Shown here piece by piece: positions 1 through 14,946 of a stretch of DNA of 26,823 nt (position 1 is the first letter of the stretch; each line of letters begins with the position of its first letter). This DNA is from a virus. Where the stretch lies: UHGV virus genome UHGV-0250493; one strand, given 5' to 3'. A model generated the notes under the pieces. It searched no databases, had not been told where the DNA came from, and saw nothing but the letters and a program-made list of their open reading frames with translations. The translations under genes and the position numbers were made by a program.

Positions 1-10
1 GAAGCAGGCT

Positions 11-166
11 ATGAAGCAGCAAAAGGCGATGTTAATCGCCCTGATCGTCATCTGTTTAACCGTCATAGTGACGGCACTGGTAACGAGGAAAGACCTCTGC
101 GAGGTACGAATCCGAACCGGCCAGACGGAGGTCGCTGTCTTCACAGCTTACGAACCTGAGGAGTAA
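11..166 (+). CDS. hok: Hok/Gef-family type I toxin, 51 aa
   Basis: ATG 11, TAA 164-166. Translation MKQQKAMLIALIVICLTVIVTALVTRKDLCEVRIRTGQTEVAVFTAYEPEE closely resembles HokC/Gef small membrane toxins. Below the ORF-track size cutoff. The mok/Sok region would lie upstream of the window. Confidence 0.8.
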   Translation: MKQQKAMLIALIVICLTVIVTALVTRKDLCEVRIRTGQTEVAVFTAYEPEE

Positions 167-234
167 GAGACCCGGCGGGGGAGAAATCCCTCGCCACCTC
201 TGATGTGTCAGGCATCCTCAACGCACCCGCACTT

Positions 235-262
235 AACCCGGTTCGGCGGGTTTTGTTTTTTT
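235..262 (+). terminator. intrinsic terminator after hok
   Basis: Hairpin AACCCG-GTTCGG-CGGGTT followed by TTGTTTTTTT. Confidence 0.5.
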
Positions 263-333
263 CTGGCATTCTGGTTTACAATTCGCACGTCAGCCTGAAC
301 ACCTGACACCTGCTGCGCCAGCAGAGAAAACAG

Positions 334-606
334 ATGGCGCACAAAACCAAATTTCACAATTCTGATACCGACCTTGCCATCCGGCATGGGCGGCGTTCAC
401 ACGCATTTAAAACCGACTGGTACCAACACCCACCATGTACTGAAGAACAGGCCGAATGGCTAATTCATAACTACCGCAGACGCGGATACGAGATTAAGAA
501 AGCCCTCAGCCTCGATTATCGTCACTGGATAATCTCCGTCAGGCTTCCTTACTCTGAACGCCCACCGCGTCCGTCCCGCACATTCCAGCAACGCATCTGG
601 AGGTAA
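334..606 (+). CDS. hypothetical basic protein, 90 aa (same position as rem in Qin-type prophages)
   Basis: ORF from ATG 334 to TAA 604-606 lying between hok and the YdfU-like gene. No family recognised by eye. Confidence 0.45.
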   Translation: MAHKTKFHNSDTDLAIRHGRRSHAFKTDWYQHPPCTEEQAEWLIHNYRRRGYEIKKALSLDYRHWIISVRLPYSERPPRPSRTFQQRIWR

Positions 607-607
607 C

Positions 608-1663
608 GTGCGGGTATTACTTCGACCTGTTCTGGTACCGGAACTCGGGCTGGTGATCGTTAAGCCGGGCCGTGAATCCATGCCGGTATTCCACAATACC
701 CGGGTACTGGTGGAGCCGGAACCGAAAAGCATGCGTAATCTGCCGTCCGGGGTCGTTCCTGCCGTTCGCCAGCCGCTGGCGGAGGATAAATCATTACTGC
801 CATTTTTCAGCGACGAACGAGTGATTCGTGCTGCTGGTGGCGCTGGCGCATTGTCTGACTGGTTACTGCGCCATGTTAAATCCTGCCAGTGGCCACACGG
901 CGATTATCACCACAGTGAAACCGTCATTCACCGTTATGGTACCGGCGCAATGGTGTTGTGCTGGCACTGCGACAACCAGCTGCGCGACCAGACCTCCGAA
1001 TCACTCGGGCAACTTGCTCACCAAAACCTGTTTGCATGGATGATTGACGTCATACGCCATGCAATGAATGGCTCGCAGGAACGGGAATTATCGCTGGCTG
1101 AATTATCCTGGTGGGCGGTCCGCAATCAGGTGGCGGACGCGCTACCGGAAGCGGTATTACGTCGTTCGCTGGGGTTGCGTGCGGAAAAAATCCGCTCAAT
1201 GTACCGTGAAAGCGACATCGTACCGGGAGAGCAGATCGCCACCAGCATACTGAAGCAGCGCACAAAAAATCTTGCGCCGCTGCCTCACGCCCACCAGCAA
1301 AACCCGCCACAGGAAAAGACGGTGGTCAGCATTGCCGTTGATCCGGAGTCACCGGCTCAGTATCTCCAGCGCCAGAAATCACAACGGGAAGAGATGCCTG
1401 TATACACGCGTTGGGTAAAAACGCAGAAATGCATGACGTGTGGCAATCAGGCAGATGATCCGCATCACATCATTGGTCATGGACTGGGAGGGATGGGAAC
1501 AAAGGCTGATGATTTGTTTGTTATTCCGCTGTGCCGTAAATGCCATAGCGAACTACACGCCGGGGTAAAAGATTTTGAAGAAAAACACGGCAGCCAGCTG
1601 TTGTTGCTGATTCGTTTTTTAATGCACGCGAGAAATTCGGGTGTTCTGAAGTGGAAAGCATAA
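608..1663 (+). CDS. DUF968/YdfU-like protein with C-terminal Cys/His (HNH-like) zinc-binding motifs
   Basis: 351 aa ORF from GTG 608, immediately after the upstream stop. C-terminal CMTCG...HHIIGHGLGG...CRKCHSELH motif. Position between hok and rusA matches ydfU in Qin-type prophages. Confidence 0.65.
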   Translation: MRVLLRPVLVPELGLVIVKPGRESMPVFHNTRVLVEPEPKSMRNLPSGVVPAVRQPLAEDKSLLPFFSDERVIRAAGGAGALSDWLLRHVKSCQWPHGDYHHSETVIHRYGTGAMVLCWHCDNQLRDQTSESLGQLAHQNLFAWMIDVIRHAMNGSQERELSLAELSWWAVRNQVADALPEAVLRRSLGLRAEKIRSMYRESDIVPGEQIATSILKQRTKNLAPLPHAHQQNPPQEKTVVSIAVDPESPAQYLQRQKSQREEMPVYTRWVKTQKCMTCGNQADDPHHIIGHGLGGMGTKADDLFVIPLCRKCHSELHAGVKDFEEKHGSQLLLLIRFLMHARNSGVLKWKA

Positions 1664-3436: not shown

Positions 3437-4486
3437 ATGCTTAATACTGTAAAAATATCCAGTTGTGAGTTAATCAACGCCGACTGCCTGGAATTTATCC
3501 GGTCGTTACCCGAAAATTCTGTTGACCTGATAGTCACGGACCCGCCGTACTTTAAAGTGAAGCCTGAGGGCTGGGATAACCAGTGGAAGGGCGACGATGA
3601 TTACCTGAAGTGGCTGGACCAGTGTCTGGCGCAGTTCTGGCGGGTGCTGAAACCTGCCGGAAGTCTTTACCTGTTCTGTGGTCATCGCCTGGCATCTGAT
3701 ATCGAAATCATGATGCGTGAACGCTTCAGTGTGCTGAACCATATTATCTGGGCGAAGCCGTCCGGACGCTGGAACGGATGCAACAAGGAAAGCCTGCGGG
3801 CGTATTTCCCCGCCACAGAGCGCATTCTGTTCGCGGAACATTATCAGGGGCCGTATCGTCCGAAAGATGCCGGGTATGCGGCGAAGGGCAGTGCACTGAA
3901 ACAGCATGTGATGGCCCCGCTGATTTCTTACTTTCGTGATGCGCGCGCGGCCCTGGGGATAACGGCAAAACAGATTGCAGATGCCACAGGAAAGAAAAAC
4001 ATGGTGTCGCACTGGTTCAGTGCCAGTCAGTGGCAGCTACCGAACGAAAGCGATTATCTGAAATTACAGTCGCTGTTTGCCCGGGTGGCAGAAGAGAAAC
4101 ATCAGCGCGGTGAACTGGAAAAGCCCCACCACCAGCTGGTGGATACGTATACGTCACTGAACCGGCAGTATGTGGAGCTGCAGAGTGAATATAAGCATCT
4201 GCGGCGGTATTTTGGTGTGACGGCGCAGGTGCCGTACACGGATGTGTGGACACATAAACCGGTGCAGTTCTATCCCGGGAAACATCCGTGCGAAAAACCG
4301 GCAGAAATGCTGCAGCAGATAATCAGCGCAAGCAGTCGTCCGGGTGACCTGGTTGCAGATTTTTTTATGGGCTCAGGTTCAACGGTAAAAGCGGCACTGG
4401 CGCTCGGGCGTCGTGCGATTGGCGTTGAACTGGAGACCGGACGTTTTGAGCAGACAGTCAGGGAAGTTCAGGATTTAATCGTTTGA
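3437..4486 (+). CDS. DNA methyltransferase (N6-adenine/N4-cytosine class, DPPY motif)
   Basis: 349 aa with the catalytic motif DLIVTDPPYF near the N-terminus and a C-terminal AdoMet-binding-like FFMGSGST motif. No adjacent restriction endonuclease gene. Confidence 0.85.
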   Translation: MLNTVKISSCELINADCLEFIRSLPENSVDLIVTDPPYFKVKPEGWDNQWKGDDDYLKWLDQCLAQFWRVLKPAGSLYLFCGHRLASDIEIMMRERFSVLNHIIWAKPSGRWNGCNKESLRAYFPATERILFAEHYQGPYRPKDAGYAAKGSALKQHVMAPLISYFRDARAALGITAKQIADATGKKNMVSHWFSASQWQLPNESDYLKLQSLFARVAEEKHQRGELEKPHHQLVDTYTSLNRQYVELQSEYKHLRRYFGVTAQVPYTDVWTHKPVQFYPGKHPCEKPAEMLQQIISASSRPGDLVADFFMGSGSTVKAALALGRRAIGVELETGRFEQTVREVQDLIV

Positions 4487-4535: not shown

Positions 4536-4611
4536 GGCCCTTTAGCTCAGTGGTGAGAGCGAGCGACTCATAATCGCCAGGTCGCTGGTTCAAATCCAGC
4601 AAGGGCCACCA
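4536..4611 (+). tRNA. ileZ: tRNA-Ile2 (anticodon CAU, lysidine type; may be annotated as tRNA-Met)
   Basis: Cloverleaf folded by eye: acceptor GGCCCTT/AAGGGCC, D-arm GCTC...GAGC, anticodon CAT at 4569-4571, T-loop TTCAAAT, encoded CCA. Near-identical to E. coli ileX. Confidence 0.85.
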
Positions 4612-4618
4612 TCACATA

Positions 4619-4695
4619 CCGCCATTAGCTCATCGGGATAGAGCGCCAGCCTTCGAAGCTGGCTGCGCGGGGTTCAAGTCCCCGATGGCGGTCCA
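4619..4695 (+). tRNA. argN: tRNA-Arg (anticodon UCG)
   Basis: Acceptor CCGCCAT/ATGGCGG, anticodon stem CCAGC/GCTGG, loop CTTCGAA (anticodon TCG at 4653-4655), T-arm CGGGG-TTCAAGT-CCCCG, encoded CCA. Confidence 0.8.
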
Positions 4696-4752: not shown

Positions 4753-5120
4753 TGTGGTTGCACTCCTGTTGTTTCTGGTGGTGATGGTGGACTTCAGCAG
4801 CCGGATAATGTCGGTGCTGTCTGATGGTGTTTTGGTGGCGGGTGTGTGGTTGTTGCTTTCCCGTTGCTGAAAAAGAAAGCATCAGGCGATTAGCAGGGTA
4901 TCAGTTACCCGTTGAAATTTTTAAATACCTCACAATTCCACAGCTTGATGATTGTCTGGCTGCCGGAGAATTTGTTAAAAATTACATCGCATGGTGAATC
5001 CCCCTGTGCGGAGGGGCAATCAGCGAGTAGGTATATGGGATAATCGCGGATTCAGGTGCTGGTACTGAATTCACCGGGAGGCACCCGGCACCATGCAATG
5101 GCACATAGCGCCACTCTCCA

Positions 5121-5155
5121 GCCCCTCTCCGGAGGGGCTGTTTATATTGATTTTG
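5121..5155 (+). terminator. intrinsic terminator in the toxin-slot region
   Basis: Perfect 7 bp stem GCCCCTC-TCCG-GAGGGGC followed by the T-rich tract TGTTTATATTGATTTTG. Confidence 0.5.
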
Positions 5156-5174: not shown

Positions 5175-5510
5175 TTATGGACTTTGTTGTTTTAGTCCAT
5201 AAGGACATATTTGCAGAGTGCAACGGTTATTAAAGCATTCATTCAATACGTTATCTGTATTTGTAGGGCATTCCTGGCTGTTTTTGATTAAATTCCAGAA
5301 TGTTTTATTGAATGGCACTACGTTGTAAATGGTTACAGGTAGCACTTTGTTATTGAGCATGATGCCTGTGTGAGTCAGTGTAAATATACTTTCAGGAGGT
5401 AAGAAAGCATCCGATTGATACCAGATTATTAATTTTATTTTACTCCATATGACTGAAAAAGATATTCCGCATGATGGCTGGATAACTGTATCAATCACAA
5501 TCCACTTCAT
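5175..5510 (-). CDS. hypothetical protein, 111 aa, in AT-rich DNA (Cys-rich C-terminus)
   Basis: Minus-strand ORF with ATG at 5510 preceded by AAGGAA 5 nt upstream, stop at 5175-5177. Plausible promoter upstream (TTTACA, about 15 nt, TATACT). Local GC is far below the flanking phage genes. No family recognised. Confidence 0.5.
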
Positions 5511-5770
5511 TTAGTTTCCTTGTTTATGCCTTGCTGGTGATGTTCTGAAAAGTATAAATGATATTTTTGATTGTAAACCATAGAGCAGAATTATTTTTCT
5601 GATGTTGTTTATTGTTTATTTAAATGCAGGGTGGTTTATATCTCGTCTTGTAGTTTATCCATGCATATCTGCTTGATGATGAGGTTTTTATTTAAGGTAT
5701 GGTTTTGTTTTTTTTCTGTATTACATGTCAGGTATTTTAAAGAATCATTTTTCAGATGGTGGAAAGAACC

Positions 5771-7627
5771 ATGGCATTTAAACACTATGATGTTGTCAGG
5801 GCGGCGTCGCCGTCAGATCTTGCGGAAAAGCTGACACATAAACTGAAAGAGGGCTGGCAGCCGTTTGGTAGTCCGGTGGCCATAACCCCTTATACCCTGA
5901 TGCAGGCGATTGCAGCAGAAGGTGATGTGGTCGTCAGTGGTGCAACTGAGCCGGAGTGGTACTACGTCATCGTACTGGCCGGGCAGTCCAATGCCATGGC
6001 TTACGGTGAAGGGCTTCCGCTTCCGGATTCATACGATGCGCCCCATCCGCGCATTAAGCAACTGGCCCGTCGTAACACAGTGACTCCCGGTGGCGAAGTA
6101 TGCGTATTTAACGACATCATTCCTGCTGACCATTGTCTGCATGATGTTCAGGATATGAGTACGATTAACCATCCCCGGGCTGACCTGAGCAAAGGGCAGT
6201 ACGGTTGTGTCGGACAGGGCTTACATATTGCCAAAAAACTGCTTCCGTATATCCCTAATAATGCGGGGATCCTGCTGGTACCATGCTGTCGTGGTGGTTC
6301 GGCATTCACCAAGGGCACGGAGGGGACATTCAGCGAGTCCACGGGGGCCAGTCAGGATTCGGCTCGCTGGGGAGTGGGTAAGCCGTTATATCAGGATCTG
6401 CTTTTCCGCACGAAGGCAGCATTGCAGAAAAACCCGAAAAACGTTTTGCTGGCGATATGCTGGATGCAGGGGGAATTTGACATGAGCGCTGCCACCTACG
6501 CACAGCAACCGGACCTGTTCACGGCCATGCTGAAGCAGTTCCGTACTGACCTTTCCGGATTTAACGCGCAGTGCCATGGCGGCAGTGCTGCAGTTGTACC
6601 GTGGATTTGTGGCGACACGACGTATTACTGGAAAAACACATACGGCACACAGTATGACTCCGTCTACGGCGCGTACAAAAACAGGGAGAGCGACAACGTT
6701 TTCTTTGTGCCGTTCATGACCGACGGTAACGGCAACAACACGCCCACCAACTTACCGGCAGAAGACCCGGATATTGCTGATGCAGGTTATTACGGCGCGC
6801 AATCCCGTAGTAATGGTAATTGGGTATCGTCAAATCGTCCGACACATTTCAGTTCATGGGCGCGCAGGGGCATTATTTCGGATCGCCTGGCAACCGCTAT
6901 TCTGAACGCAGTTGGTCGAACCAGCGCCTTCATCAGCGGTACCGCACCGGAGATTAAACCCTCGCCCGGCGGCGACACGCCATCGGGGCCGTCTGATGGT
7001 GACACATCCGTTCGTACAGTCTCCCTGCTGCCGACAGCCGGAGAGGCTGCTGCGCAGGGCTGGACCATCACCGGCGGCAGTGTTGCGCTGGAAGATGGTG
7101 TGTTTAAGGTTACCAAGCAGAGCAATAAAACCTGGTCCCTGATGCATCCGGTGGATGACGCAGTCTCCCTGCTGACACGGGGTGGCAGACTGAGCTGTAA
7201 GTTTCGACTGTCAGGCGCACTGACCAACAACCAGTTCGGTCTGGGAATTTATCTGTATACCGATGTAGCGTTACCTGACGTCGTGGCGATGACCGGGACT
7301 GGTAACCCGTTCCTGATGTCGTTCTTCACCCAGACCACAGACGGCAAACTGAATCTGATGCATCACAAGAAAGCCGGAAACACAAAGTTGGGCGAGTTCG
7401 GGAATTACAGTAACGACTGGCAGACGCTGGAGCTGGTGTTCACCGCCGGCAGTGCCACGGTTACTCCGAAACTGAATGGAGTGGCTGGCCCGGCATTCCA
7501 GGTCATAAAAGACAGTCTGACACTGGGGCTGAATGCGCTGACGCTGACGGATATTACCAAAAATGCAGCGTATGGCGTTGAGATAGAAAGTCTGGTGCTG
7601 GAGATAAATGCACCGGCATCATCATAA
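5771..7627 (+). CDS. nanS-p: prophage 9-O-acetyl sialic acid esterase (NanS-p type: DUF1737 N-terminus plus SGNH esterase plus C-terminal domain)
   Basis: N-terminal MAFKHYDVV...EGWQPFGSP (DUF1737-like), then the SGNH-type motif VIVLAGQSNAMAYG. Position matches the large ORF downstream of the toxin slot in Stx-type prophages. Start taken at ATG 5771 (GGAAAG RBS) rather than track start 5756. Confidence 0.8.
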   Translation: MAFKHYDVVRAASPSDLAEKLTHKLKEGWQPFGSPVAITPYTLMQAIAAEGDVVVSGATEPEWYYVIVLAGQSNAMAYGEGLPLPDSYDAPHPRIKQLARRNTVTPGGEVCVFNDIIPADHCLHDVQDMSTINHPRADLSKGQYGCVGQGLHIAKKLLPYIPNNAGILLVPCCRGGSAFTKGTEGTFSESTGASQDSARWGVGKPLYQDLLFRTKAALQKNPKNVLLAICWMQGEFDMSAATYAQQPDLFTAMLKQFRTDLSGFNAQCHGGSAAVVPWICGDTTYYWKNTYGTQYDSVYGAYKNRESDNVFFVPFMTDGNGNNTPTNLPAEDPDIADAGYYGAQSRSNGNWVSSNRPTHFSSWARRGIISDRLATAILNAVGRTSAFISGTAPEIKPSPGGDTPSGPSDGDTSVRTVSLLPTAGEAAAQGWTITGGSVALEDGVFKVTKQSNKTWSLMHPVDDAVSLLTRGGRLSCKFRLSGALTNNQFGLGIYLYTDVALPDVVAMTGTGNPFLMSFFTQTTDGKLNLMHHKKAGNTKLGEFGNYSNDWQTLELVFTAGSATVTPKLNGVAGPAFQVIKDSLTLGLNALTLTDITKNAAYGVEIESLVLEINAPASS

Positions 7628-11749: not shown

Positions 11750-12340
11750 GTGCTGACAACGCAAAAACGAAAATTTGCGCTGGCGCTCATGTCCGGGAAA
11801 AACAAAACAGCGTCAGCCATTGCCGCCGGTTATTCGGCGAAGACCGCCAGGGTTAAAGGCTCGCAGCTGGCAAAAGATCCTGAGGTGCTTGCGTTTATAG
11901 CCCGTAAACAATGCGAGACGGTGGAGGTGGATGAGGTTCCTGTTTACCGGCAGAAAAAATCAGAGCAGGAGGATAAACCCCGTCGCCGTGAGGCGGCTGC
12001 AATACCACAGCCGGACGAAAACAATCTGGAGATGCCACCGTCCGCGGTGATGTCTCCTGGTATTGAATATATGGAGGATGGTCTTCCCGATCCGGTGAAA
12101 GCCATGGGGCGGATCCTGGTGGAAAACCTCTGCATTGATCCGAAACTGGCACTGGATGCGGCCTGGCGTCTGGCGCAGTTCACGCACCATAAAAAAGGGG
12201 ATACCGGGAAAAAATCGGCAAAAGATGATGCCGCGAAAAAAGCGGCTAACCGTTTTGCGGTGCCACCGCCACCCCGACTGGTGGTGAATCCGCCACCAGA
12301 GGTTCAACCCGGCTCCAGTCCAGAATACGCAGTTCTTTGA
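11750..12340 (+). CDS. terminase small subunit (C-terminal about 17 codons probably altered by a rearrangement junction)
   Basis: GTG start with GGAGGAGG RBS. N-terminal region KNKTASAIAAGYSAKTARVKGSQLAKDPEV typical of TerS. The 3' end overlaps, on the opposite strand, the end of the inverted portal fragment. Confidence 0.7.
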   Translation: MLTTQKRKFALALMSGKNKTASAIAAGYSAKTARVKGSQLAKDPEVLAFIARKQCETVEVDEVPVYRQKKSEQEDKPRRREAAAIPQPDENNLEMPPSAVMSPGIEYMEDGLPDPVKAMGRILVENLCIDPKLALDAAWRLAQFTHHKKGDTGKKSAKDDAAKKAANRFAVPPPPRLVVNPPPEVQPGSSPEYAVL

Positions 12341-12734
12341 TCTGCCCCCGGGCATTACGGATTTTCAGCACCACCGTATTGCCATGACGCAGTTTGGCGT
12401 TCAGCCACAGTTCAAAAAACTGGATGCGGTTCTGCTGGGCGTTGGGACGACGACAGAGGCGGGCAATATCCCCCCGGCGCGTTTCCCTGCGTATCCCATG
12501 CGCATCCGTCTGCATAAGACGCAGCCGCATTTTGGCGATATCCTGGGATATCAGCGAAATACATGCAAACACCGCATGAAAGGAGAGGACGGCTTCAGGA
12601 TCGGCTTTCACGCCCTGCTGCCAGGCGCCGGAAAAGGGCTCAGCCACCGCCTGAAACAGGCTGGTCCAGCCCGCCTCTCTTACGTCACGTCCTGATTTCT
12701 GGTTTTTTCGGGTTCGCCGTAAAAGGTTCCACAT
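12246..12734 (-). CDS. portal protein, N-terminal portion only (gene interrupted, inverted relative to its C-terminal part)
   Basis: ...SGAWQQGV...AVFACISLISQDIAKMRLRL...GNTVVLKIRNARGQIKELRILDWSRVEPLVAD matches the HK97-family portal N-terminus. After about position 12288 the frame runs 13 unrelated codons to a stop. Confidence 0.6.
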   Translation of the reverse strand: MWNLLRRTRKNQKSGRDVREAGWTSLFQAVAEPFSGAWQQGVKADPEAVLSFHAVFACISLISQDIAKMRLRLMQTDAHGIRRETRRGDIARLCRRPNAQQNRIQFFELWLNAKLRHGNTVVLKIRNARGQIKELRILDWSRVEPLVADSPPVGVAVAPQNG

Positions 12735-12901
12735 TCGCCATGCTCCGCATCACGTTTCTTTTTCTGACCTGCCGGACGTCGCACCGTGATGTACTCCGCC
12801 TTTCCCAGGCGAACCAGCACCTCCGCACACGGCTGTGCCACATCACGGATATCCCCGGCCCGGGCATCATGCGTGCCCTGCAGATATCGGATCTTTGCCA
12901 T
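12680..12901 (-). CDS. hypothetical small ORF between capsid and portal-N genes
   Basis: 73 aa ORF with weak RBS, overlapping the portal-N start in another frame. May be spurious. Confidence 0.2.
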   Translation of the reverse strand: MAKIRYLQGTHDARAGDIRDVAQPCAEVLVRLGKAEYITVRRPAGQKKKRDAEHGECGTFYGEPEKTRNQDVT

Positions 12902-12945
12902 AACCTGTTACGGGAGGCGCACGCCTCCCGTCCTCCTTATCAGAC

Positions 12946-14883
12946 TCAGCCGCCGGACGCACTGCCGTAGTTCACTCCGGTGATCACCGCCACCGCCGCA
13001 GTACGGCGACGACGCCAGTTGATCCAGCGCTCCGCACGGATGGCCACGCTGCCTGTCTGGAACATGGAAACCAGCTCCACCGGGGACGGCGTGGTACTGT
13101 CGCCGGTCGGCTCAGACTGCATTTCCAGTGATGCCTCGCGGGACATATCCACTGCCACGCCGCCGTCATCCGCCAGATAAATATCCGGGGCATTCACCAG
13201 CACCAGCTGGTCACCCACGTACTGGGAGACAATCACCGGCAGCCCCTGGAAGGAGCCACCCAGCAGGGTCATGTCCGGGTATTCCTTCTGACCCAGCGCA
13301 TTTTTACGCATGGACAGTGCCAGGGCATTGGTGCTGGACATCAGCCAGACCGCACCGGTGGGCTGCAGGTTTGCTGCCACAAACTGTCCAAACGCAGCCT
13401 CTGCATCCGCATCCGGGTTACCGGTTGATGCCGTGCCCTTCACATCATGGGTGATGGACGCCGGGGAGACATCTGCCACTGCGGCTTTTTTCGGGTCCAC
13501 AAAGTCTGTATCCAGACGCGCCACCACCGCTTCCGCCAGCGCATTACGGACCAGTGCATCAGCAGCCGGACTGGAAAAACGGATCAATTCTTCCGTCAGT
13601 ACCGCAATGGCCGACACCTTCGCATGACTGAAGGTGATGGATTCAAAATCAAACTTCGTCAGGGGTTTTGCCTTACCCTCACCCACCCAGCCGGCAGCAC
13701 CGCCGGACACCTGGGCGTGCACACGGATATTGAATGGCACCTGACGAAGTGCAGGGATCCCGCCCTGACCAAATCGCCCGATAATGGTCTGCGGACGCAG
13801 GTAATCAATAAAGTCCTGTGCGTATTCCTGATATTCAGACAGGCTGCCTGCCCACTGCGGATCCGTGGTGGTCCCCGCGCCCACTGCCGATTTCAGGACA
13901 TGATGCAGACGACTGTCATCCGGATACTGACGACGGGCCACTTCCAGGGCTTCAGATCGGACGCCTTTAGCCGCAGCCAGCGATTTGGCAAAGCGGGCGA
14001 AGCCAATCCCCTTATCCAGTTTCTGCTCCACACGGATCACCGGCGCAGAAGCCACCGCGGCCACATTCCCGTTACCGGCCTGTTTCACCGGCTGCGCCGT
14101 GGCGGCCTTACCGGCTTCCAGTTCACGCAGGCGCTTCAGGTGCGCATCCACCTGACGGATTTCCGCTGCGGTGTTGTCGTAATGCTCTTCCTCCTCCACA
14201 TCCAGCGTGCGCCCTTCCTCTGCGGCTTTGGTCATGACCTCCTCAAGGGAGGCTGCCAGCGCTGCACGCTTGTTTTCAAAACTTTTAATCTGTTCGCCAA
14301 TATTCATTATGGTCTTTTCCTTATGAAAAACGGTTGTTGACTGTGCCGCAGCGCCGGCAGAAGATGCGATTTTCACCACCGGTTTCCGGTTGCCGGACGC
14401 GGCAGAAAACGGGCGGTCGTAAGATTTAATGGTCCGGATGGTGCATTCCGCATTCGCGGGCACGGTGACGGCAGACACCTCCATCAGTTCCCAGCGCAGA
14501 AAATGCAGTCCGCCTCCGTCCAGAAAGGTGTATTCATGGGGACGGAAGCCCACGGACAGCCCCCTGACCAGCCCGGTCTTAATGGCCGCCCAGACCTCAT
14601 CCAGCCGGGCAGCCAGTTGCGACGGCATATCCGGTACGGGCTTCACCAGTGTTGCCGTGATTTCCAGCCCTTCGCTGACCCGGCGCACCGTACACTGCCC
14701 CACCGGGCGGGAATGGTCATGCTGCCAGAGAAACGGTATCGCACTGCCAAACTCCGCGCCCTCCGGCTCCAGGATGTCACCATCCCGATCCGGAGAAGGC
14801 GTTGACGCAATCCCGGTGATCACCCGTTCATCCTCACTGAAGGATTTCACCGTCAGCAGGGAACAGGCCCGTTTAAGAGTCAC
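12946..14883 (-). CDS. prohead serine protease - scaffold-like linker - HK97-fold major capsid protein fusion
   Basis: 645 aa. The N-terminus has prohead protease motifs (PFLWQHD, GLSVGF, EVSAVTVPAN). The middle is a charged coiled-coil-like region. The C-terminal about 300 aa has an HK97-type capsid pattern. GTG start with AGGAGG RBS. Confidence 0.8.
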   Translation of the reverse strand: MTLKRACSLLTVKSFSEDERVITGIASTPSPDRDGDILEPEGAEFGSAIPFLWQHDHSRPVGQCTVRRVSEGLEITATLVKPVPDMPSQLAARLDEVWAAIKTGLVRGLSVGFRPHEYTFLDGGGLHFLRWELMEVSAVTVPANAECTIRTIKSYDRPFSAASGNRKPVVKIASSAGAAAQSTTVFHKEKTIMNIGEQIKSFENKRAALAASLEEVMTKAAEEGRTLDVEEEEHYDNTAAEIRQVDAHLKRLRELEAGKAATAQPVKQAGNGNVAAVASAPVIRVEQKLDKGIGFARFAKSLAAAKGVRSEALEVARRQYPDDSRLHHVLKSAVGAGTTTDPQWAGSLSEYQEYAQDFIDYLRPQTIIGRFGQGGIPALRQVPFNIRVHAQVSGGAAGWVGEGKAKPLTKFDFESITFSHAKVSAIAVLTEELIRFSSPAADALVRNALAEAVVARLDTDFVDPKKAAVADVSPASITHDVKGTASTGNPDADAEAAFGQFVAANLQPTGAVWLMSSTNALALSMRKNALGQKEYPDMTLLGGSFQGLPVIVSQYVGDQLVLVNAPDIYLADDGGVAVDMSREASLEMQSEPTGDSTTPSPVELVSMFQTGSVAIRAERWINWRRRRTAAVAVITGVNYGSASGG

Positions 14884-14893
14884 ATCAGCCTCC

Positions 14894-14922
14894 TGAAAAT
14901 AAAAAAACCGCCGGAGCGGTTC
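14894..14922 (-). terminator. intrinsic terminator between TerL and the capsid gene (minus strand)
   Basis: On the minus strand, hairpin AACCGC-TCCG-GCGGTT followed by TTTTTTTATTTT, immediately before the AGGAGG RBS of the capsid gene. Confidence 0.5.
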
Positions 14923-14946
14923 GTGATGGTTACAGTGTGAACAGGG

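Follow-up and report, generated by a model that had tools for sequence, protein, structure and literature searches.

The window, by which we mean the whole stretch of 26,823 nucleotides analyzed here (UHGV virus genome UHGV-0250493), opens on a short toxin gene and the RNA elements that follow it. Positions 1-262 very probably make up the 3' two-thirds of a type I toxin-antitoxin locus of the hok/sok kind (allele hokD) in a lambda-like E. coli prophage, with replication/queH genes on one side of it and DUF968-RusA-Q on the other, and the window edge splits this locus in two. The first base of the window lies 10 nt before the hok ATG, and no base of the mok start, the Sok target or the sok gene falls inside; the window part holds, besides the ORF, regulatory RNA elements (hairpin, fbi, and terminator). 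The order of the genes downstream agrees with the sequence-only reading, which had placed the toxin gene upstream of YdfU-like, RusA, and Q genes. The features are:

1-10, plus strand: final stretch of the hok leader, gaagcaggct, with the Shine-Dalgarno region before it and the hok ATG after it (identical to L001 8001-8010 and L007 3394-3403, two of the near-identical loci described below)
11-166, plus strand: hokD coding sequence, ATG start, 51 codons, stop TAA at 164-166; product MKQQKAMLIALIVICLTVIVTALVTRKDLCEVRIRTGQTEVAVFTAYEPEE
149-152, plus strand: UACG motif at the Tyr47 codon, read from the sequence
174-195, plus strand: G+C-rich hairpin GGCGGGGG-AGAAAT-CCCTCGCC just past the stop codon, 8 pairs, conserved
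216-228, plus strand: fbi (fold-back inhibition) element CCUCAACGCACCC, the pairing partner of the 5'-terminal tac GGGUGCUUGAGG in the full-length hok mRNA
235-262, plus strand: intrinsic terminator of the hok mRNA, from a terminator scan; stem AACCCG/CGGGTT at 235-252, loop GTTCGG, T-run to 262
334-606, downstream of hokD: 90-aa ORF, no Pfam match
608-1663: DUF968/YdfU-like gene
1664-2044: RusA
2041-2862: antiterminator Q

The hokD toxin gene

The 51-codon ORF at 11-166, which had been read as Hok-like from the sequence alone, proved to be just that: it matches the HOK_GEF profile (Pfam PF01848) over its full length (profile positions 1-42 of 42; 82.9 bits against a cut-off of 22, E 1.2e-23), and its DNA equals the K-12 MG1655 hokD (relF, b1562) coding sequence with no differences. 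The translation has a hydrophobic N-terminal helix, Cys30, and Tyr47, and it contains the RKDLCEV and TEVAVF..YE motifs, both of which are kept in at least 50 relatives. Judged by its sequence, the 51-aa product is a Hok/Gef-family inner-membrane toxin, allele hokD. The idea that 11-166 is a chance short ORF without coding function, for which nothing speaks except its small size, is refuted by the full-profile Pfam match (E 1.2e-23) and the identity to the characterised gene hokD of K-12, and it also conflicts with an amino acid sequence that is kept with synonymous variation in at least 50 loci.

The hokD region is present in about 4,700 of the 5,426 complete E. coli genomes, and RefSeq gives the product in matching loci as 'type I toxin-antitoxin system toxin HokD'. 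The NCBIfam Hok-family HMM NF007279 scores HokD at 48.5 bits, below its curated cut-off of 73. Despite this sub-cut-off score, the identical or near-identical protein is called HokD in RefSeq, presumably by some rule other than NF007279, which seems to be tuned to other Hok subgroups. A search of the PDB returned no relative of the HokD toxin. The window hokD is therefore not new, being a named gene that is routinely annotated in thousands of genomes. The sequence-only reading stated that the gene had been missed by the ORF track, and it is indeed absent from that list, because 51 aa falls below the usual 60-aa listing limit; this is only a matter of a length threshold, and the NCBI pipeline does call the gene. 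A short toxin gene skipped by a length-filtered ORF list is still a standard named gene, and its recovery has little import beyond correct annotation.

K-12 HokD, which is sequence-identical to the window product, is among the previously characterised toxic controls used elsewhere (bioRxiv 10.1101/2025.08.07.668861). The same work reports A-to-I editing by TadA at UACG, which recodes Tyr to Cys in hokC/D/E mRNAs (bioRxiv 10.1101/2025.08.07.668861). TACG at the Tyr47 codon is invariant across the 43 loci that we aligned, which come from several genera.

Conserved RNA elements of the 3' untranslated region

The earlier statement that the ORF is followed by a terminator holds as far as it goes: the site at 235-262 is the only terminator-like site within 1-700, and it is kept in K-12 hokD and in the relatives. 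However, 167-262 also holds the hairpin at 174-195 and the fbi element at 216-228, and the 3' UTR is a conserved regulatory element beyond a mere terminator. The comparison that bears on this draws on 53 hok loci fetched from Escherichia, Shigella, Kluyvera, Citrobacter, Pseudocitrobacter, Photorhabdus, Pantoea, Erwinia, and others, 43 of which were aligned (MAFFT), with the segments picked by fixed distances from the ORF; choosing loci by an exact complement to fbi was dropped because it would have been circular. Pair counts in the alignment refer to the outer six tac-fbi pairs and the hairpin, and duplex energies refer to the whole element. The inner six tac-fbi pairs were left out of the alignment count because their register differs from clade to clade by a one-base bulge.

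For the fbi pairing, the tac partner was taken from the relatives and the 3' UTR from the window itself. This duplex reaches -21.1 kcal/mol, compared with -9.9 +/- 2.4 for shuffled tac, and when each tac is combined with its own 3' UTR the mean is -20.3 kcal/mol, again compared with -9.9 +/- 2.4 for shuffled tac. A foreign tac put in place of the native one gave a weaker duplex in 82% of 928 combinations, and the two weakest tac-fbi duplexes belong to L011 and L053, which are visibly decayed loci. Across the 43 aligned loci, the six outer tac-fbi pairs are 98% paired; pair 4 covaries, with UA in 27, CG in 11, and UG in 3 instances. For the hairpin at 174-195, 97.4% of cells are paired (43 loci) and three pairs have changed on both sides. 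The covariation score of both helices together (tac-fbi plus hairpin) was reached by 0 out of 500 shuffles, and pairing falls to 47-61% when the partners are slid out of register.

The full-length RNA, taken from a relative that is 99.9% identical, has a predicted length of 422 nt and folds with z = -6.45; in it, nt 1-12 (GGGUGCUUGAGG) pair with CCUCAACGCACCC, and the hairpin at 174-195 is present in the minimum-free-energy fold. The pairing of nt 1-12 with 216-228 is the classical tac-fbi fold-back of hok mRNAs. By analogy with the R1 hok mRNA, the hairpin at 174-195 is likely to be the 3'-end barrier of the processed, active mRNA.

On the minus strand, RefSeq relatives carry a call for a 59-aa 'hypothetical protein' at 208-387, antisense to the hokD terminator and to the start of the next gene. 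This call has no family match on record and overlaps the conserved RNA elements, and for these reasons it is probably spurious.

The upstream leader and the prophage neighbourhood

None of the 5,426 complete E. coli genomes matches the window exactly; the best whole-window match among them has 80% coverage at 97.9% identity, and the best match for 1-620 has 99.8% identity. Four near-identical loci were nevertheless available for the comparison. Two of them, L006 and L007, were found by an exact-sequence look-up of the neighbouring DUF968 protein and have two mismatches and one mismatch to the window, respectively, over 5,663 compared positions; L001 has two mismatches in the first 3.6 kb, and L002 has one in 1.2 kb. 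The 240 nt upstream of the window's first base are identical across all four, and in each of them the order is queH, a 237-nt spacer, and hokD. The sequence-only reading had placed the regulatory partner upstream of position 1 and had pointed to the mok frame, the Sok promoter, and the antisense RNA as what to look for there. When this search was run on the near-identical loci (one or two mismatches over 2.1-5.7 kb), the mok frame, the Sok promoter, and an antisense sok gene were all present, and the queH-hokD spacer contained a full mok/Sok leader. Two elements of this leader read in the hok sense:

queH-hokD spacer of the relatives, hok-sense strand: hok promoter, sigma-70-like, TTGGCG-17-TAGAAT, the sole such site in the scan
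L001 7954-8166, hok-sense strand: mok, 70 codons, in frame with hok

The hok promoter ends 7 nt before a match covering the whole of the Rfam RF01794 'sok' model, which scores 120.5 bits where the gathering score is 59. This model follows the hok sense and stops at the hok ATG, and the counterpart of window positions 1-10 in L001 and L007 is the 3' end of the match. An independent gene caller returned the same 70-aa mok product with a HOK_GEF match. When the 5' end of Sok was carried over by alignment from the annotated K-12 sokC and sokB, both placed it at the same base, L001 7962, which lies 8 nt inside mok. On the minus strand, the relatives have a Sok promoter (TTGCCT-17-TAACCT), and the sok end consists of a long hairpin and a U-run. 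The leader elements stop at least 4 nt before the window's first base. A permissive Rfam search of the window's first 3.5 kb gave no match at 1-330, as expected, since the 'sok' model covers the leader, which lies off the window.

The gene immediately before hok/sok in these loci, queH (epoxyqueuosine reductase, PF02677; L001 7108-7773, L007 2480-3166), is a phage-carried tRNA-modification gene. A hok/sok locus of Erwinia sp. CGal63 has three CRISPR-DR4 repeats immediately upstream (L056 250-397).

The earlier reading had held that the completeness of the module could not be judged here. This is correct insofar as the window holds no mok start or sok, but the question is answerable by proxy from the near-identical loci, and on that basis the source would very probably carry a complete hok/mok/sok module. 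The full-length locus is found in 4,072 complete E. coli genomes, and a K-12-like class covers its 3' 56% only. At least 80% of window positions 1-620 (hokD plus downstream flank) is held by 3,215 complete E. coli genomes, and at least 80% of a query made of the leader, hokD, and the same flank, a threshold that is unreachable without the leader, is held by 3,222. Given these two numbers, genomes with hokD and this flank essentially always have the leader.

These counts also bear on the alternative that the window carries an orphan hokD as in the Qin prophage of K-12, in which the promoter, mok, and sok were lost and the gene is read through from upstream, for example from relBE, without forming a self-contained toxin-antitoxin system. 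K-12 and K-12-like strains have exactly such an arrangement, and the homology of K-12 to the full-length loci sets in some 14 nt ahead of the ATG, only a few bases from the window start. Leaderless orphan hokD genes do exist (K-12 relBEF, the K-12-like L012, and L033 from Kluyvera), the leader has decayed in L011, and the Rfam sok match is absent in L003, L012, and L033. A 553-nt contig of E. albertii (L014) starts 13 nt before the ATG, which, being so near the window start, suggests a common assembly break at the repeat boundary where hokD leaders diverge. We nonetheless consider an orphan very improbable. The window's flank from 263 on is not of the K-12 type: it diverges from that of K-12 right after the terminator and is not the rem-bearing Qin flank that goes with the relBEF operon of K-12. 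Moreover, the leader is present in essentially all genomes with the window's flank (3,222 versus 3,215), and the closest loci (one or two mismatches in 5.7 kb) have queH, not relE, together with a full leader upstream of hokD. The bases 110A and 173C differ from some close loci, but both are found in other full-length loci, so that a K-12-type donor is unneeded. We also asked whether misassembly had fused a K-12-type hokD copy into the first ~200 nt of the window, given that 110A and 173C match K-12, and rejected this because the same alleles occur in full-length loci.

Further downstream, the window contains several genes that we note in passing. The 90-aa ORF at 334-606 was considered as a candidate for Rem and rejected, as it is unrelated to Rem. 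A DNA methyltransferase gene at 3437-4486 is followed by a tRNA pair, one with a CAT anticodon (tRNA-Ile in RefSeq relatives) and a tRNA-Arg(TCG), and then by a full-length match to the Rfam STnc100 sRNA (133.7 bits; regions 4536-4695 and 4959-5149). A 111-aa gene on the minus strand at 5175-5510 corresponds to IraM in the relatives (anti-adapter, PmrD-like), and a 623-aa SASA/DUF1737 sialate esterase (NanS-p-like) is encoded at 5756-7627, between the Q gene and the lysis genes.

In the head region, a 4,343-bp block at 12288-16630 runs in the opposite orientation to the remaining late operon, whose natural order is terS-terL-capsid-portal on one strand. The block contains the 3' end of terS, terL, a protease-capsid fusion, a small ORF, and ~450 nt from the start of the portal gene. 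Two of its genes are:

12946-14883, minus strand: prohead protease-capsid fusion, inside the inverted block
14947-16608, minus strand: terL, inside the inverted block

The inversion thereby cuts short both terS (11750-12340) and the portal gene (16589-18439, Pfam profile from 94 of 321). Many E. coli genomes and prophages carry the block with 100% identity, its inverted arrangement occurs in 0 of the 5,426 complete E. coli genomes, and no inverted repeats were found at its breakpoints; it represents either a real inactivating inversion or a misassembly.

Proposed function and comparison with known systems

Our proposal for how the complete module might work is drawn step by step from established hok/sok biology, namely that of plasmid R1 and of hokW-sokW of Sp5/933W. 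A stable mRNA of ~420 nt would be made that is untranslatable and resistant to Sok for as long as the 3' fbi pairs with the 5' tac. Slow trimming from the 3' end toward the hairpin at 174-195 would strip off fbi, upon which the mRNA would refold and expose the mok ribosome-binding site and the Sok target. As long as it is made, the unstable Sok RNA would bind the exposed target, block translation of mok and hence of the coupled hok, and lead to cleavage of the duplex. Once Sok synthesis stops, because the element is lost, transcription is shut off, or the prophage is induced, Hok would be made, insert into the inner membrane, and collapse the membrane potential. The pay-off for the prophage is likely to be maintenance, help with lysis on induction, or both.

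An intact hok sequence is no guarantee of such activity, since the chromosomal hok loci that have been tested showed no post-segregational killing (summarised in bioRxiv 10.1101/2025.08.07.668861), and the same work reports an enrichment of hok genes in prophages (bioRxiv 10.1101/2025.08.07.668861). The module could accordingly be complete and still a biologically silent relic that does not kill on loss, has no effect on the phage, and hitch-hikes in a mosaic prophage. Decayed copies do exist (L011, L049, and L053), and the head genes of the window's own prophage are rearranged, so that this prophage may be defective owing to its disrupted head module. Against this, the leader, ORF, hairpin, and fbi have been kept in Escherichia, Kluyvera, Citrobacter, Photorhabdus, Pantoea, and Erwinia, with compensatory changes, and this pattern across genera points to selection on the regulatory fold. 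A silent relic also sits poorly with the functional hokW-sokW, whose toxin is 92% identical. We regard a silent relic as unlikely.

More tentatively, we speculate on where the K-12 arrangement came from. The order queH - sok/mok/hokD - DUF968 - RusA - Q could be ancestral to the orphan relBE-hokD of K-12, in which the leader would have been replaced about 14 nt before the ATG. Separately, a module so close ahead of the late-gene antiterminator might serve to set the time of lysis or to keep out other phages, and not to stabilise the prophage. Both ideas are possible, though we would not rate them as probable. In Kluyvera sp. CHPC 1.2972, a relE-like 3' end and spacer abut hok (L033 516-700) in what is nearly the relBE-hokD junction of K-12. 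The relE-like end and spacer are, by eye, closely similar to those of K-12, the hok allele is a different, Citrobacter-like one, and L033 has no Rfam sok match. The relBE-hok composite therefore also occurs outside K-12-like E. coli, and its junction with a different hok allele hints that it is a mobile, recombining composite module and not an accident of K-12.

The sequence-only reading had likened the locus to hokD/relF in Qin-type prophages. In gene order this likeness stands: each hokD gene belongs to a lambdoid prophage and precedes a YdfU/DUF968 gene and a Q antiterminator. The coding sequence of Qin hokD (b1562) is identical to that in the window, and its 3' UTR has the same hairpin, fbi, and terminator, with two base differences before the terminator T-run. 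In K-12, however, relB-relE replace the leader from about 14 nt before the ATG, leaving no mok, sok, or Rfam sok match; rem follows the terminator where the window has an unrelated 90-aa ORF; and there is no RusA gene at the place where the window has one. Since K-12 hokD has no mok/sok and has relE directly upstream, the Qin analogy is positional only. The name hokD thus stands for two different things: in most E. coli prophages the gene belongs to a complete hok/sok module, whereas in K-12 it is an orphan that follows relBE. Caution is needed when carrying knowledge of K-12 hokD over to other hokD loci.

A closer parallel to the module as a whole is hokW-mokW-sokW of the Stx2 phage 933W and the Sakai prophage Sp5. 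HokW is 92% identical to the window toxin, four C-terminal residues differing (TA..P.E versus VD..S.K), and hokW-sokW of 933W has ~92.6% DNA identity to the full locus of the window's relatives, with which it shares its layout: a 70-aa mok in frame, a 51-aa hok, and an antisense sok. The two differ in position, as hokW-sokW of 933W lies near one map end by ead/Ea22-like genes, whereas the locus studied here has queH on one side and DUF968-RusA-Q on the other. In Sp5, hokW-sokW acts as a toxin-antitoxin system of type I and aids phage release; upon treatment with mitomycin C, sokW RNA was lost, HokW was induced in a RecA-dependent manner, and phage release doubled (PMC8621323). Phage-borne hok/mok/sok is thus already annotated in 933W and characterised in Sp5 (PMC8621323). 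We found the hok/mok/sok arrangement in 102 phage records.

Plasmid R1's hok/sok (parB) system and the chromosomal loci hokB/sokB and hokC/sokC in K-12 belong to the same family and share the tac-fbi pairing, the coupling through mok, and a Sok 5' end just inside mok. In sequence they are more distant, the hokC locus having ~77% DNA identity. In the window's relatives, as in hokC, mok is in frame with hok, whereas in R1 it is out of frame.
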